Positions 15,776 through 61,959 of a stretch of DNA of 64,000 nt are shown piece by piece. The stretch is from assembly GCF_035084215.1 (NCBI RefSeq), contig NW_027139717.1, forward strand, positions 1 to 64,000, given 5' to 3'. The stretch is from Heptranchias perlo. Its lineage: Eukaryota. Numbering within the stretch: position 1 is the first letter of the stretch; the number at the start of each line of letters is the position of its first letter. Made by a program: the position numbers and the translations under genes. The notes under the pieces are model-generated. The model searched no databases. It was not told where the DNA came from and saw only the letters and a list, made by a program, of their open reading frames with translations.

Positions 15776-16552
15776 ATGCTCCACCTGCCCCACTTCATTC
15801 TCCACACAGAGCCCACTGCTGTACTCACACTCACTCTCACACTCACATTTACTCTCTCACACTCACTCTCTCACACTCACTCTCTCACACTCACTCTCTC
15901 ACACTCACATTCACTCTCACACTCACATTCACTCTCATTCTCACTCACTCTCTCACTCTCGCATTCACTCTCTCGCACTCTCTCTCACCATTTCACTCAT
16001 GGTTTAGGGCCACTGAAAGATGATGTGATGAGTTTGGATTTCAGCACAGGGAAGAGGGAGAGTGTGTGGGATGGGGATTTGCAGCTTTGAGGCACAAGAG
16101 TGGAAAGAATGTTCCGTAGAAGCTAGAATTGTCTGTTCTGAATTTCTATCCTGTACTTACAGTGATTACTTTTATAAACTCCTTTACAGGGTATTAGAAG
16201 GGGAGGATTAGCAGAGGGAAACTCAAACCAAAGATCACGTCAAGATCTGACAGAGTCACTCGATTCATCAGGACCTGAATATCATCGGCCTTTGAATGTG
16301 GAAGGAGAAATGTTTGTCTGTTCCATCTGTGGGAGAAGATTTCAAACATCAGTGTGAGTGGAAAAGCACCGAGACACACACACCCGAGTGAGAGTGTTCC
16401 AGTGCACTGACTGTGGAAAGAGCTTTAACCAGTTACACAGCCAGAAAAAACACTGCACCATTCACAGCGGGGAGAAACCGTACACGTGTTCTCTGTGTGG
16501 ACGAGGCTTCAACTGATCGTCCAACCTGGAGAAACACAAGGACACCCGGACC

Positions 16553-17590
16553 ATGGAGAAACCGTGGAAATGTGGGGACTGTGGGAAGGGATTCAATTAC
16601 CCATCCAGGCTGGAAACTCATCGACGCAGTCACACTGGGGAGAGGCCGTTCACCTGCTCCGTGTGTGGGAAGGGATTCAATTACCCGTCCAGGCTGGAAA
16701 CTCATCGATGCAGTCACACTGGGGAGAGGCCGTTCTCCTGCTCCGTGTGTGGGAAGGGATTCACTATTTCATCCGACCTGCTGAAACACCAGCGAGTTCA
16801 CACTGGCGAGAGGCCGTTCTCCTGCTCCGTGTGTAAGAAGAGATTCACTCAGTCATCCACCCTGCTGGCACACCAGCGAGTTCACACTGGGGAGAGGCCG
16901 TTCACCTGCTCCGTGTGTGGGAAGAGATTCACTTGGTCATCACACCTGCTGTCACACCAGCGAGTTCACTCCGATGAGAGACCTTTTAAATGCTCTGACT
17001 GTGGGAAGAGCTTTAAAGGCAGAAATGAACTGCTGAGACATCAACGCAGTGACACCGGGGAGAGGCCGTTCACCTGCTCCGTGTGCGGAAAGAGATTCAC
17101 ACTGTCATCCACCCTGCTGGCACACCAGCGAGTTCACACTGGGGAGAGGCCGTTCACCTGCTCCGTGTGTAAGAAGAGATTCACTCATTCATCCTCCCTG
17201 CTGAAACATCAACTTGTTCACACTGATGGGAGACCTTTTAAATGTTCTGACTGTGAGAGGAGCTTTAAAAGCAAAATTGAACTGCTGCAACACCAACGCA
17301 CTCACACTGGGGAGAGACCGTTCATCTGCTCTGTCTGTAAGAAGAGATTTACTCGGTCATCCCACCTGCTGATACACCAGCGAGTTCACACTGGGGAGAG
17401 GCCGTTCTCCTGCTCCGTGTGTGGGAAGAAATTCACTCATTCTTCCACCCTGCTAACACACCAGCGAGTTCACTCCGATGAGAGACCTTTTAAATGTTCT
17501 GACTGTGAGAAGAGGTTTAAAAGCAAAAGGAATCTGCTGACACACCAACGCACTCACACTGGGGAGAGGCCGCTCACCTGCTCCGTGTGA
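16553..17590 (+). CDS. Tandem C2H2 zinc-finger protein (12 fingers, one with H>D); no KRAB/BTB/SCAN domain seen
   Basis: ATG in accATGg context, repeated CxxC-x12-HxxxH with TGERPF linkers. Splice acceptor at 16189. Degenerate in-frame fingers upstream (TGA at 16355 and 16514) and downstream to about 18143. Confidence 0.85.
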
Positions 17591-21413: not shown

Positions 21414-21486
21414 GGGGATTTAGTTCAGTGGTCGAGCGCATGTTTCGCATGTGTTGAGGTCCTGGGTTCAACTCCCAGCGTCTTCC
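21414..21486 (+). pseudogene. tRNA-Ala(CGC) pseudogene
   Basis: ggggatttagttcagtggtcgagcgcatgtttCGCatgtgttgaggtcctgggttcaactcccagcgtcttcc aligns to vertebrate tRNA-Ala(CGC) with several stem mismatches and a 1-nt insertion. Confidence 0.8.
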
Positions 21487-21983: not shown

Positions 21984-22055
21984 GGGAATGTCGCTCAGTG
22001 GAAGAGCGCATGCTTTGCATGTATGAGGTCCCGGGTTCAATCCCCGGCATCTCCA
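21984..22055 (+). tRNA. tRNA-Ala(TGC), near-intact (A4-C69 mismatch, A9>C)
   Basis: GGGAATGTCGCTCAGTGGAAGAGCGCATGCTTTGCATGTATGAGGTCCCGGGTTCAATCCCCGGCATCTCCA. The G3:U70 identity pair, anticodon arm and T arm are intact; TTTT lies about 20 nt downstream. Confidence 0.85.
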
Positions 22056-27323: not shown

Positions 27324-27406
27324 GCTGCGATGGCCGAGTGGTTTAAGGCGTTGGACTCGAAATCCCCTGGGGATTTCCTGCGTACGTTCGAATCCTGTTC
27401 CCAGTG
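27324..27406 (+). pseudogene. tRNA-Ser(CGA) pseudogene
   Basis: gctgcgatggccgagtggtttaaggcgttggactCGAaatcc..gttcgaatcctg..cagtg matches tRNA-Ser(CGA), with mismatches in the anticodon, T and acceptor stems. Confidence 0.82.
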
Positions 27407-30360: not shown

Positions 30361-30434
30361 AGGCACCACTAGGAATTGAACACAGGATCTCCTGTTTACT
30401 AGACAGGTGCTTTAACCAACTAAGCCACGGTGCC
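30361..30434 (-). tRNA. tRNA-Thr(AGT), near-intact (one T-stem mismatch); possibly a pseudogene
   Basis: Reverse complement GGCACCGTGGCTTAGTTGGTTAAAGCACCTGTCTAGTAAACAGGAGATCCTGTGTTCAATTCCTAGTGGTGCCT. Confidence 0.85.
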
Positions 30435-33715: not shown

Positions 33716-34867
33716 TCAGCAGTTTGTTTGTGATTTTAAATCTCTTCCCACAGTCAGAACATTTAAAGGTCTCTCAGTGTGAACTTGCTGGTGTTTCAGC
33801 AGGGTGGATGACCGAGTGAATCTCTTCTTACACACGGAGCAGGAGAACGGCCTCTCCCCAGTGTGGGTGCATTGGTGTGTCAGCAGATTACATTTGCTTT
33901 TATACCTCTTCCCACAGTCAGAACATTTAAAAGGTCTCTCATCGGAGTGAACTTGCTGGTGTGTCAGGAGGTGAGATGACCGAGTGAATCTCTTCCCACA
34001 CACGGAGCAGGTGAATGGCCTCTCCCCCGTGTGGGTGCGTTGGTGGCTAAGCAGTTCAATTTTGCTTTTAAACCTCTTCTCACAGTCAGAACATTTAAAA
34101 GGTCTCACATCAGTGTGAACTCGCTGGTGTGTCAGGAGGTGAGATGACCGAGTGAATCCTTTCCCACACACAGAGCAGATGAACGGCCTATTCCCAGTGT
34201 GAGTGCGTTGGTGTTTCAGCAGTTCAATTTTGCTTTTAAACCTCTTCTCACAGTCAGAACATTTAAAAGGTCTCTCATCAGTGTGAACTCGCTGGTGTGT
34301 CAGAAGCTCAGATGACCGAGTGAATCCCTTCCCACACACGGAGCAGGTGAACGGGCTCTCCCCAGTGTGAACTCGCTGGTGTGTCAACAGGGTGGATGAC
34401 TGAGTGAATCCCTTCCCACACACGGAGCAGGTGAACGGCCTCTCCCCAGTGTGGGTACATTGGTGTGTCAGCAGATTCCTTTTGCATTTAAACCTTTTCT
34501 CACAGTCAGAACATTTAAACGGTCTCTCCCCAGTGTGAACTCGCTGGTGTGTCAACAGGGTGGATGACTGAGTGAATCCCTTCCCACACACGGAGCAGGT
34601 GAACGGCCTCTCCCCAGTGTGAGTGCGTTGGTGTGACAGCAGATTACTGTTGCTTTTAAACCTTTTCTCACAGTCAGAACATTTAAAAGGTCTCTCATCA
34701 GAGTGAGCTCGCAGGTGTGTCAGGAGGTGGGATGACCGAGTGAATCCCTTCCGACACACGGAGCAGGTGAACGGCCTCTCCCCAGTGTGACTGCGTCGAT
34801 GAGTTTCCAGCTCTGAAGGGGAATTGAATCCCTTCCCACAGTCCCCACATTTCCACGGTTTCTCCGT
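33716..34867 (-). CDS. Tandem C2H2 zinc-finger ORF, copy 2 (13 fingers); ATG replaced by ACG, so either a non-AUG start or a pseudogene
   Basis: Open frame from accACGg (34867) [10 protein letters not shown] to a frameshifted tail [21 protein letters not shown]. Upstream in-frame TGAs at 35063 and 34904. Confidence 0.7.
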
Positions 34868-35411
34868 GGTCCGGGTGTCCTTGTGTGTCTCCAGGTTGGA
34901 CGATCAGTTGAAGCCTCGTCCACACACAGAACACGTGTATGGTTTCTCCCCGCTGTGAATGGTGCGATATTTTTTCTGGCTGTGCAATTGGGGAAAGCTC
35001 TTTCCACAGTCAGTGCACTGGAACACTCTCACTCGGGTGTGTGTGTCTCGGTGCTTTTCCACTCACACTGATGTTTGAAATCTTCTCCCACAGATAGAAC
35101 AGACAAAAGTTTCTCCTTCCACATTCAAAGGTCGATGATATTCAGGTCCTGATGAATCGAGTGACTCTGTCAGATCTTGACGAGATCTTTGGTTTGAGTT
35201 TCCTTCTGCAAATCCTCCCCTGTAAATGGAGTTTATAAAAGTTATCACTGTAATTACAAGATAGAAATTCAGATCAGATAACTCTACTTTCTATGGAACA
35301 TTATTTCCTCTCTCATTACTCAAACCTGAAAATCCCCCGTCCCACACACTCTCCCTCCTCCCTGTGCTGAAATCCAAACCCATCGCATCATCTTTCAGTA
35401 GCCCTGAACCA

Positions 35412-50418: not shown

Positions 50419-50654
50419 TCAGTCTCACTGGTCCCATAACATAACTTTAAAGCAGTAAAATTAACCAGAACCTGCTCCAAAGACAAAACAGATCCAGATC
50501 TTGAAGGTGTGATGATTTCCTTCTCTCTGCTCTGTTGGTGGGAGGCTCATTTCCAGTCCCAGGTATTTGTCTATTCCCCATGTCTGATGGGTTGGTTCCT
50601 GTGAACAGTTTGTCAGAGAGTGTTTCACTGCCTCAGGGTGTTTACAGAGAGATG

Positions 50655-51106
50655 TGAGGAATCTTACAACACCAGGTTTTAGTCCAACAGTTTTATTTGA
50701 AAATCACAAGCTTTCGGAGGCTTTCTCCTTCGTCAGGTGAGTGTGGGATTCCATGAAAGGCACCGCTTTATAGTCAGAGCACAATGCCTGGTGATTACAG
50801 ATAATCTTTCCAACTGCAGGTTGTCAAGGCAATCAAAGGATTCGAATAACAGGATTGGTTTGACCAGGAGACCTGTCTGTTGGAATGAGCCACATTTCAA
50901 GGACCTATTTTACTGATTTGAAACCCTCACAGCCTGTCTCCCCCTCTTCCCTCACCCCAAACCGAGTCCCCCCTCCACACTCACCTGACAAAGGAGAAAG
51001 CCTCCGAAAGCTTGTGATTTTCAAATAAAACTGTTGGACTATAACCTGGTGTTGTAAGATTCCTTACATTTGTCCACCCCAGTCCATCACCGGCATCTCC
51101 ACATCA
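50655..51106. mobile_element. Fold-back Penelope-derived element with a captured central segment
   Basis: Inverted arms at 50655-50745 and 50976-51068 plus the tail; the centre (50850-50972) matches 321-443. Confidence 0.78.
50704..50740 (-). ncRNA. Minimal type I hammerhead ribozyme motif with intact core
   Basis: Minus-strand RNA reads UCAC-CUGACGA-A-GGAG-aaagc-CUCC-GAAAGCUU-GUGA: stem I UCAC/GUGA, stem II GGAG/CUCC, palindromic AAGCUU stem III. Confidence 0.65.
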
Positions 51107-52164
51107 TCTTTACAGAGAGAGAGAGAGAAGCAGCTCCCATCCTGGTCTGAAAGACCCAGTCAATGAGAGATTTATAAAAACAATCCAGCCCAGTGCAGTT
51201 AAACCTTGTCCCCTATTAATCCAAACACACCATATTGTGAGCAAAATTCAATATTTCACAGGGCCAGTGAGTCCCAGACACGGATTGTACCCACCTCCCT
51301 AAACTAAACTCAACTCCTTACTGGAAAAAGTGTCTGTCAAAACACAGCCCGTTTCGGGACTGAACCCCTCAAATAACCGTTACACTCAACATTGCAATCT
51401 CTCAGTGAATCGTTCCCTTTTACCCACTGTGTACTGTACATGTGCAGGAGCTGACACTGAGACACGGGCCGTACCGTACCTGAGTACTTTCCAAACAAGA
51501 GAAATTGAGAGAGACAACAGAGAGAGAGGGGCAGAGAGAGAGAAAAGCACAGAGAGAGAGGGGGCGAGTGGCAAAGAGAGGGAAGGGGAGAGAGAGAGAG
51601 AGAGAAAGTAAGAGCGGGGAGAGAGTCAGAGAGAGAGAGAGAGAGAGGTCGGGAGAGAGAGAGAGAGGAGGTGAGAGGCAGAGGGAGAGAGGGGGACAAA
51701 GAGAGTGAAAGACAGAGAGAGTGAGGTGGAGAGGCAGAGAGTGGCTTGGTCCTGCCTGGTGATTTACCCGATTCCTGCGAGCAGCCAGGCTTCTCTGGGC
51801 TGTTTAATGGCTTCTCACCAGCAAGGGGGGCCCCCATCTCCCACCTCGCAATAAACTCTTTCAATCAGATGCTTCCCCTCACCGTCACACATTACCACTG
51901 TTGCAAGCCGCACACGCACAACCCACAGGTCACACACACTGGCAGCTATTCAACCATGACAGGCACATCACCCAAACACCCTGCAGGACCCTCACTGACT
52001 CACGTCCCGCTTTCTGGCAGGAGACCCCCTCACACTCTCTCCCTCTCTCTCCGTTGCTGTCGCTCTATCCCTCTCTCCCCCTCTCTCTCTGTCACTCCCT
52101 CGCTTTCGCTGCCTCTCTACCCCTCTCCCGTTCTCGCCCTCTCCCGTTCTCGCCCGCTCCCTGA

Positions 52165-56260: not shown

Positions 56261-57030
56261 CTCTATATCTTCACTCATCCAGGGAGCTCGAGCTTTGGAT
56301 GCTGTTCCTTTCCTCCTCGTGGGAATCTGTCCACTCTGTACCCAAACCAACTCCTCCTTGAAGGCCTCCCACTGTTCAATTACTCTTCTGCCTGCCAATT
56401 TTTGATTCCAATCCACACTCACTCTCTCACACTCACTCTCTCACACTCACTCTCTCACACTCACTCACTCTCTCACCCTTTCACTCATGGTTTCGGGCCA
56501 CTGAAAGATGATGCGATGGGTTTGGATTTCAGCACAGGGAGGAGGGAGAGTGTGTGGGACGGGGATTTACAGCTTTGAGGAATGAGAGAGGAAATAATGT
56601 TCCAGAGAAAGGAGAGTTATCTGATCTGAATTTCTATCCTGTAATTACAGTGATAACTTTTATAAACTCCTTTTACAGGGGAGGATTTGCAGAGGGAAAC
56701 TCAAATCAAAGATCACGTCAAGATCTGACAGAGTCACTCGATTCATCAGGACCTGAATATCATCGACCTTTGAATGTGGAAGGAGAAACATTTGTCTGTT
56801 CTATCTGTGGGAGAAGATTTCAAACATCAGTGTGAGTTGAAAAGCACCGAGACACACACACCCGAGTGAGAGTGTTCCAGTGCACTGACTGTGGAAAGAG
56901 CTTTAACCAGTTTCACAGCCTGAAAAAACATCGCACCGTTCACAGCGGGGAGAAACCGTGCACGTGTTCTCTGTGTGGACGAGGCTTCAACTGATCGTCC
57001 AACCTGGAGACACACAAGGACACCCGGACC

Positions 57031-58350
57031 ACGGAGAAACCGTGGAAATGTGGGGACTGTGGGAAGGGATTCAATTACCCTTCAGAGCTGGAAACTCATC
57101 GACGCAGTCACACTGGGGAGAGGCCGTTCACCTGCTCCGTGTGTGGGAAGGGATTCATTCGGTCATCCCACCTCCTGACACACCAGCGAGTTCACTCTGA
57201 TGAGAGACCTTTTAAATGTTCTGACTGTGAGATGAGGTTTAAAAGCAAAATTAATCTGCTGATACACCAACGCACTCACACTGGGGAGAGGCCGTTCACC
57301 TGCTCCGTGTGTGGGAAGGGATTCACTCAGTCATCCAGCCTCCAGACACACCAGCGAGTTCACACTGGGGAGAGACCTTTTAAATGTTCTGACTGTGAGA
57401 AAAGGTTTAAATGCAAAAGGAATCTGCTGACACACCAATGTACCCACACTGGGGAGAGGCCGTTCACCTGCTCTGTGTGTGGGAAAGGATTCACTCAGTC
57501 ATCCACCCTGCTGACACACCAGCGAGTTCACACTGCGGAGAGCCCGTTCACCTGCTCCGTGTGTGGGAAGGGATTCACTCAGTCATCCCACCTCCTGACA
57601 CACCAGCGAGTTCACACTGGGGAGAGCCCGTTCAGCTGCTCCGTGTGTGGGAAGAGATTCACTCGGTCATCCAACCTGCTGACACACCAGCGAGTTCACT
57701 CTGATGAGAGACCTTTTAAATGTTCTGACTGTGAGAAGAGGTTTAAAAGCAAATGTAATCTTCTGACACACCAATGCACCCACACTGGGGAGAGACCGTT
57801 CTCCTGCTCCGTGTGTAAGAAGAGATTCCCTCGGTCATCCACCCTGCTGAGACACCAGCAAGTTCACTCCGATGAGAGACCTTTTAAATGTTCTGACTGT
57901 GAGAAGAGGTTTAAAAGCAAATTTAATCTGCTGACACACCAACGCACTCACACTGGGGAGAGGCCGTTCTCCTGCTCTGTGTTTGGGAAGGGATTCACTG
58001 GGTCATCCACCCTGCTGAAACACCAGCGAGTTCACACTGGGGAGAGACCGTTCTCCTGCTCCGTGTGTGGGAAGAGATTCACTCGGTCATCCCACCTGCT
58101 GAGACACCAGCGAGTTCACTCCGATGAGAGACCTTTTAAATGTTCTGACTGTGAGAAGAGGTACAAAAGCAAATTTAATCTGCTGACACACCAACGCACT
58201 CACACTGGGGAGAGGCCGTTCACCTGCTCAGTGTGTGGGAAGGGATTCGCTTGGTCATCCTCCCTGCTGAAACACCAGCGAGTTCACACTGAGAGACCTT
58301 TAAATGTTCTGACTGTGGGAAGAGATTTAAAATCAGAAACGAACTGCTGA
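57031..58350 (+). CDS. Tandem C2H2 zinc-finger ORF, copy 3 (15 fingers, one with C>F); ACG in place of ATG
   Basis: Open from accACGg (57031) TEKPWKC to a frameshifted tail [21 protein letters not shown]. Acceptor at 56678; upstream TGAs at 56833 and 56992. Confidence 0.72.
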
Positions 58351-61885: not shown

Positions 61886-61959
61886 GGTGCTGTGGTTTAG
61901 TTGGTTAAAGCATCTGTCTTGTAAACAGGCGATCCTGGGTTCAACTCCCAGCAGTGTTT
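61886..61959 (+). pseudogene. tRNA-Thr(TGT), degenerate acceptor stem
   Basis: ggtgctgtggtttagttggttaaagcatctgtctTGTaaacaggcgatcctgggttcaactcccagcagtgttt. The T arm is intact; the acceptor stem has several G:U pairs. Confidence 0.8.

Follow-up and report, generated by a model that had tools for sequence, protein, structure and literature searches.

Is the short motif at positions 50704 to 50740 a hammerhead ribozyme, and what kind of element has carried it into this locus? The question arises from a stretch of 64,000 nucleotides of the shark Heptranchias perlo (contig NW_027139717.1), here called the window, for which an original prediction had described an intact minimal hammerhead core within scattered, Penelope-derived fold-back elements.

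The hammerhead motif and its conservation

The motif was read on the minus strand. The 5' side of stem I (UCAC, 50740-50737) is followed by CUGACGA (50736-50730), an additional A at 50729 between positions 9 and 10.1, stem II with its loop (GGAG-aaagc-CUCC, 50728-50716), GAAA (50715-50712), GCUU (50711-50708) and the 3' side of stem I (GUGA, 50707-50704). These are the letters of the predicted intact core, and a relaxed minimal-hammerhead descriptor has its sole match in the window at 50740-50704 (minus), where 0.045 matches are expected, this being the mean of 200 dinucleotide shuffles, none of which contained a palindromic stem III. The sequence features of the minimal type I hammerheads of metazoan Penelope-like elements (PLEs) are present, namely the core positions C3-A9 (CUGANGA), G12-A14, A15.1, U16.1 and H17, the stems I and II, the G10.1-C11.1 pair, the extra nucleotide between 9 and 10.1, the location in the pLTR of a PLE and a palindromic 15.1-16.1 segment that replaces stem III, which is AGCU here and ACGU in a distant repeat family. 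The self-complementary AAGCUU that had been proposed in the place of stem III is indeed a palindrome; its pairable part is limited to AGCU (A15.1-G-C-U16.1, 4 bp in a dimer), A14 and U17 being core positions. The stretch 50740-50704 (minus) thus reads as a minimal type I hammerhead. By the established hammerhead numbering, the cut would follow U17, between 50708 (U17) and 50707, which agrees with the predicted cut site after GAAAGCUU.

All 11 core positions are the same in 24/24 aligned natural variants, whose selection pattern already prescribes the larger part of the core, and N7, loop II and the stems vary. Across these variants 91% of the stem cells are paired, as opposed to 28-44% in slid controls, and 10 of the 13 pairs have changes on both sides. 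Four rows that belong to a single distant repeat family contribute most of these double changes, which amount to about one event per pair. In the motif's own family a both-sided change is found only at the fifth stem II pair, which is unpaired in 9/24 rows, including 50740-50704. Within the subfamily (49 copies, those with more than three differences excluded) the depletion of non-CpG changes in the core is weak, with one at 9 core sites vs 14 at 24 other sites. We infer that the ribozyme is under selection in the source elements. The distant repeat family, a second one with a minimal hammerhead (L023:539-579, L047:7624-7664, L160:380-420, L172:1643-1683), has fully compensated stems, stem I being AGUU/AACU, and an ACGU palindrome; tblastn matches to the PLE ORF lie elsewhere in those loci, and no parent element was found.

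That the repeat carries along a stem-loop which arose by chance or lacks catalytic function is highly improbable. The Rfam covariance models, named with the original prediction as a check, returned no hammerhead family at E<=1 in a scan of the window, only sub-threshold tRNA-like and miRNA hairpin matches, which would suit such a stem-loop, as would the U17 at the cleavage site, the slowest of the accepted bases; copy number alone is uninformative on function. However, the core is invariant while its surroundings vary, and the fit to the published minimal hammerheads is exact (9/10.1 extra nucleotide, G10.1-C11.1, palindromic 15.2-16.2).

Insertions in the window and their parent element

The five related motifs of the original prediction were all found, at 115, 39497, 49133 and 50981 (plus) and 48816 (minus). 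Sequence reading agreed with G8>A in four of them, accompanied by G12>A at 48816 and by A14>G at 49133, and the weakened stem II at 39497 is an A.C mismatch at the 10.1-11.1 pair. A seventh, 5'-truncated arm at 39418-39499 (minus) adds to the six listed motifs. These six do not represent six independent landings. They belong to three two-armed fold-back insertions (39419-39621, 48727-49222 and 50653-51108), each with its own target-site duplication (TSD), and to one segmental duplicate:

50704..50740, minus strand: minimal type I hammerhead motif with intact core (descriptor match and sequence reading)
50653..51108, no strand: entire fold-back insertion of short-ended arm (minus), captured spacer and long-tailed arm (plus), from the arm and TSD analysis
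50641..50652, plus strand: left TSD, 12 bp, identical to the right copy
51109..51120, plus strand: right TSD, 12 bp
50653..50848, minus strand: short-ended pLTR arm, 197 nt, containing the hammerhead motif
50766..50772, minus strand: TATA-like box, 36 nt upstream of C3
50850..50976, plus strand: 127 nt of host sequence matching the neighbour's 3' flank (48646-48520 minus, 98.4%; also 321-457)
50975..51108, plus strand: long-tailed arm with motif 50981-51017 (G8>A) and tail 51070-51108, which extends to just before the ORF start codon position of full elements
48727..49222, no strand: neighbouring fold-back insertion with 10-bp TSD and G8>A in both arms (48816-48852 minus, 49133-49169 plus)
39419..39621, no strand: fold-back insertion of a sister subfamily (stem II GGAGA-UAA-UCUCC) between 12-bp TSD copies that differ at one position; the right arm has the motif 39497-39533, and the left arm breaks off within the core
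8..241, plus strand: segmental-duplicate copy of the long-tailed arm of 48727-49222 (partner of 48726-48960), no independent insertion; motif 115-151, G8>A

The window is part of a heavily duplicated C2H2 zinc-finger cluster, and the insertion 50653-51108 recurs in five other contigs, in which G8 in the left arm and A8 in the right arm are kept. Three C2H2 zinc-finger arrays of 11-14 fingers (16517-17587 plus, 33719-34903 minus, 56995-58347 plus) sit within nested inverted segmental duplications of 95-97% identity. Interspersed with the zinc-finger units are sequences that match tRNAs or resemble them and exceed the gathering score of Rfam (21984-22055, 30361-30434, 61886-61959), with weaker ones at 21414-21486 and 27324-27406. 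A 50-bp C-rich minisatellite (340-1459 and 47193-48673) adjoins the long-tail end of the 48727-49222 element and of its duplicate.

The origin of the copy at 50653-51108 can be narrowed down by its spacer and its TATA-like box. The spacer 50850-50976 runs in the sense of the long-tailed arm and ends in one unit of the 50-bp minisatellite, the matching neighbour being 2 kb away. The TATA-like box, from which a start site at about 50742 is predicted, has a spelling that occurs in 41 copies, all in the duplicated cluster and none on the large contigs with dispersed copies. Because 50653-51108 has the neighbour's private variant and its flank, an ORF-less copy appears to have been mobilised in trans, with 48727-49222 as its likely source. 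To judge from this one case, a read-through transcript of the ORF-less neighbour probably served as template, with a jump between templates where CCAC matches. G8 is intact in the left arm, which requires that copying preceded fixation of the decay or that conversion took place afterwards.

In this copy the hammerhead is likely silent. For RNA that spans the entire insertion, a fold of -220 to -238 kcal/mol with the motif within the duplex is predicted, and ribozyme activity at 50653-51108 is unlikely because a read-through transcript would bury the motif in this way. A transcript from the copy's own TATA box would be a monomer without stem III. The predicted homodimer of minimum energy (-19.0 kcal/mol) pairs stem II between the molecules, compared with -14.3 for a one-core hammerhead dimer, therefore folding alone has no preference for the active dimer. 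For minimal hammerheads, monomers are described as inactive and dimers as weakly active (Cervera and de la Pena, 2014, PMC4209133).

The Penelope origin, part of the original prediction, is supported by an identity of 90.4% over 198 nt between the arm 50653-50848 and the 3' end of the reverse transcriptase (RT)-bearing copy L071, whose ORF matches RVT_1 (Pfam, E 7e-11). RVT_1 was found in 5/5 ORF pieces at E<=0.0065 and also in one 902-aa ORF, in agreement with a single ORF with RT. The pLTR repeat, which consists of the TATA-like box, the hammerhead and a 38-nt tail, is present after the ORF and directly before the start codon, in the motif's own subfamily as well (partial tandems). Between RT and endonuclease (EN), long copies have the linker CHGNLCKTC (CX4CxxC), which falls within the CX2-5CxxC pattern given as a mark of Neptune/Nematis (PMC8557442). 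Near the ORF C-terminus a VYLI...YIGET motif follows, from which, Pfam giving no GIY-YIG match, a putative endonuclease was read. In a sister subfamily, unbroken 902-aa ORFs with YIDD, CHGNLCKTC and YIGET lie between direct hammerheads about 3.08 kb apart, as in the direct tandems L169, L179, L194 and L196. Such ORFs were found in this sister subfamily and not in the motif's own, and they suggest recent activity of the former. The ORF of a near-full-length copy has received a 119-bp fold-back (L071:4006-4124), which belongs to the same family and is flanked by a duplication of its own.

The family is abundant. In the 3.25-Gb genome, exact copies number 7,367 for the 45 nt that follow downstream of the motif and 5,922 for the intact 35-nt core, and a looser core pattern gives 82,235 genome-wide matches vs 2 for the reversed control. 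G8>A was found in 297 copies (5%) and C7>T in 418. Since both are the two strands of one CpG, G8>A copies are regarded as decay; C7>T exceeds G8>A by no more than 418 to 297. A reading of G8>A as a shared functional state was rejected; it is one strand of CpG decay, multiplied by inverted arms and segmental duplication. Taken together, we conclude with good confidence that the motif belongs to the pLTR of an abundant, ORF-bearing Penelope-like retrotransposon and that this copy is one arm of a fold-back, likely a dead integration by-product.

Fold-back anatomy and the ends of the arms

After removal of 5 duplicate loci, a TSD score >=8 was obtained for 49/54 head-to-head pairs vs 3/300 shuffled pairings. 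The TSDs are 9-16 bp long, and set against the 8-10 bp of published EN+ PLE units (in the parts on unit structure) those here are about 10-14 bp. In 48/49 TSD-flanked insertions one end has the 38-nt tail and the other lacks it. Direct and inverted pLTRs, the one-sided tail and the TSD all occur here as in EN+ PLEs. The insertions range continuously from 119 to 3,526 bp, up to the 3-kb ORF-bearing copies. Arm-arm junctions often overlap by 1-5 nt. In L091, two adjacent fold-back units (2658-2988, 331 bp, and 3003-6528, 3.5 kb) apparently have one common TSD that occurs three times.

The original prediction had proposed a non-autonomous Penelope derivative that bears a ribozyme and is dispersed over the locus, and a distinct fold-back element copied as a unit by the Penelope machinery, similar to a retrozyme, might be expected from the 33/49 TSD-flanked insertions that are <=260 bp and ORF-less, from the neighbour's private TATA variant and flank in 50653-51108, and from the report of non-LTR retrozymes as non-autonomous PLE derivatives, including one chondrichthyan (Li, Clavereau, Pollet, 10.64898/2026.07.22.740005, as far as its account of these derivatives goes). 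We nevertheless consider it quite unlikely, as the 33 short insertions have 33 different junctions, their sizes are continuous with those of ORF-bearing copies, 3/35 pairs combine arms with loops of different subfamilies, not counting a pair whose loops differ by two substitutions, and the copies in the window form no short head-to-tail arrays, by which retrozymes are defined as tandem units. A fixed internal structure at independent sites, as in a discrete non-autonomous family, was not found, and the window itself holds three insertions and a duplicate. One point speaks for the proposal, in that 50653-51108 probably records at least one mobilisation of an ORF-less copy in trans. The fold-backs are best read as truncated insertions of the autonomous family, and a separate non-autonomous family is not supported.

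When arms were picked by tail alone, 69/150 end at -15..+9 of C3. From 205 non-reference arms, 66 were dropped (no validated end or beyond reach), and 105 of the remaining 139 validated 5' ends lie at -20..+8 of C3, compared with 3 within 2 nt of the predicted cut. Since the ends pile up before the core and seldom fall at the predicted cut, most of the RNA that was copied had apparently escaped cleavage, in line with the in vitro work on PLEs. Cleavage before reverse transcription, with the short copies as cDNAs of the cleaved product, is the role proposed for PLE hammerheads in the relevant part of PMC4209133 and would account for the 3/139 ends near the cut; it is very unlikely here, since there is no peak at the cut, the 105/139 upstream ends need an uncleaved template, and hammerhead mutants left in vitro insertion unchanged in the assays described in PMC11167929.

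The position of the pile can be compared with the TATA-like hexamer, which lies 34-47 nt before C3 in 88/89 arms reaching that far. The upstream edge of the pile moves with the TATA distance, from about -10 for distances of 34-38 nt to -17 to -19 for 46-47 nt. After 23/139 ends with an ambiguous TATA class were dropped, 20/116 ends fall at TATA+29..31 vs 12.7 after permutation (p=0.012), a modest excess, and single non-inverted arms start in the same region, three of them at TATA+30. We therefore lean slightly towards run-off at the RNA start as the origin of the arm ends. In 14 TSD-flanked single arms, the 5' ends showed no untemplated G of the kind that a cap would leave. In the literature, the rotifer PLE pLTR has a putative TATA and an Inr-like TCACT (PMC3846280, in its description of the pLTR), and the D. 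virilis Penelope promoter is TATA-less (PMC2377424).

Alternatively, the pile may be due to the hammerhead region itself, by RT pausing after its stems or by cDNA annealing at the micro-palindromes TCA/TGA and TCAC/GTGA. This is possible, if on the whole unlikely: many ends lie within the core (+1 to +8), junction overlaps of 1-5 nt are frequent, and anchoring on the TATA sharpens the peak little, the best 3-nt window holding 23 ends when anchored on TATA vs 21 when anchored on C3, with a regression slope of end position on TATA distance of -0.28 rather than -1 (Spearman p=0.09). However, the shift of the upstream edge with the TATA distance and the single non-inverted arms that start there, including the three at TATA+30, speak against it.

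Proposed insertion model, known systems and significance

With run-off at the RNA start, the following course of insertion may be proposed. The element protein would cut both target strands in a staggered manner, and cDNA synthesis would begin on each strand from one of two internal sites, which lie downstream of C3 at distances of about 85 and 123 nt. The template would be uncleaved RNA, on which the RT would often run off the 5' end just before the hammerhead, and the two cDNAs would then be joined head to head, anew at each landing. The hammerhead would cleave only as a dimer or with the help of protein. Going further, we tentatively raise a rather unlikely reading, in which the thousands of 200-bp fold-backs would be fossil 'strong-stop' products and the hammerhead would lie in the first 40 nt of the Penelope mRNA, uncut in the insertion RNAs, with AGCU pairing two RNAs within a dimer of the protein, by which both strands of the cut would be primed, one from each start site. 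If this were true, cleavage would serve to decap and retire the message and not to process the template. A jump from the 5' end of the RNA to a 3' end would build pLTRs or capture host flank, as at 50850-50976. A search of titles and abstracts, which covered few subscription journals, found no twin-priming or strong-stop model of PLEs, although one may have been published elsewhere.

Minimal hammerheads in PLE pLTRs, as well as the layout of inverted pLTR, single tail and TSD, are already published. The sections of PMC4209133 on minimal hammerheads, found in the fish elements Xena, Poseidon and Neptune, describe the same type I fold with short stem I, unpaired 9/10.1 nucleotide, G10.1-C11.1, palindromic 15.2-16.2 and no loop III, in thousands per genome, with tandem pairs about 3 kb apart around an ORF and opposite-strand pairs 100-700 bp apart. 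Differences are stem II, with 4-5 bp here and 7-8 bp in Schistosoma, the U at N17, and a far higher copy number, with 82,235 pattern matches here vs about 9,000 in Xenopus. Those sections make no mention of sharks.

The EN+ PLE insertion unit is described with an inverted 5'-truncated pLTR, a 30-40-bp tail at one end and a TSD in the relevant parts of Arkhipova (2013, PMC3846280) and Craig (2021, PMC8557442), and the head-to-head pLTRs, single tail, putative TATA and Inr-like TCACT, linker and capture of host DNA between pLTRs agree with those parts. In contrast to the units described there, most units here measure only some 200 bp, with ends that gather at one fixed position; the same parts contain no such census of ends and favour self-priming on an antisense template.

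In the biochemical part of the work on Anolis Poseidon (Frangieh, 2024, PMC11167929), the PAc protein nicks both strands and extends them, the tail is defined by two internal sites of RT start, unprocessed RNA serves as template in vitro, and the hammerhead cleaves only with protein. The hammerhead at the pLTR-ORF junction is common to PAc and the present family, and the fold-back anatomy fits two start sites and an uncleaved template. The PAc ORF begins within stem II and encloses the tail, whereas here the hammerhead precedes the ATG by about 125 nt and the tail ends at the ATG. With non-LTR retrozymes (10.64898/2026.07.22.740005, as they are characterised there), the fold-backs have in common that they are ORF-less, derived from a PLE pLTR and equipped with a type I hammerhead. 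Retrozymes, however, are head-to-tail tandem units, and the fold-backs here are head-to-head, each with its own junction and TSD; short head-to-tail units are missing, the direct repeats being about 3.08 kb apart with an ORF between them.

The motif itself is ordinary. Both its ribozyme type and the layout of its element have been published, and it has tens of thousands of sister copies. Its value lies in the copy population, which is a countable, genome-scale record of cDNA stops, of non-stops at the cut and of arms from mixed subfamilies. The intact 902-aa relatives make the insertion model testable in vitro, and the record bears on the origin of the inverted repeats and one-sided tail of PLEs and on the role of their hammerheads, which the PLE literature, in the parts considered here, poses as open questions.
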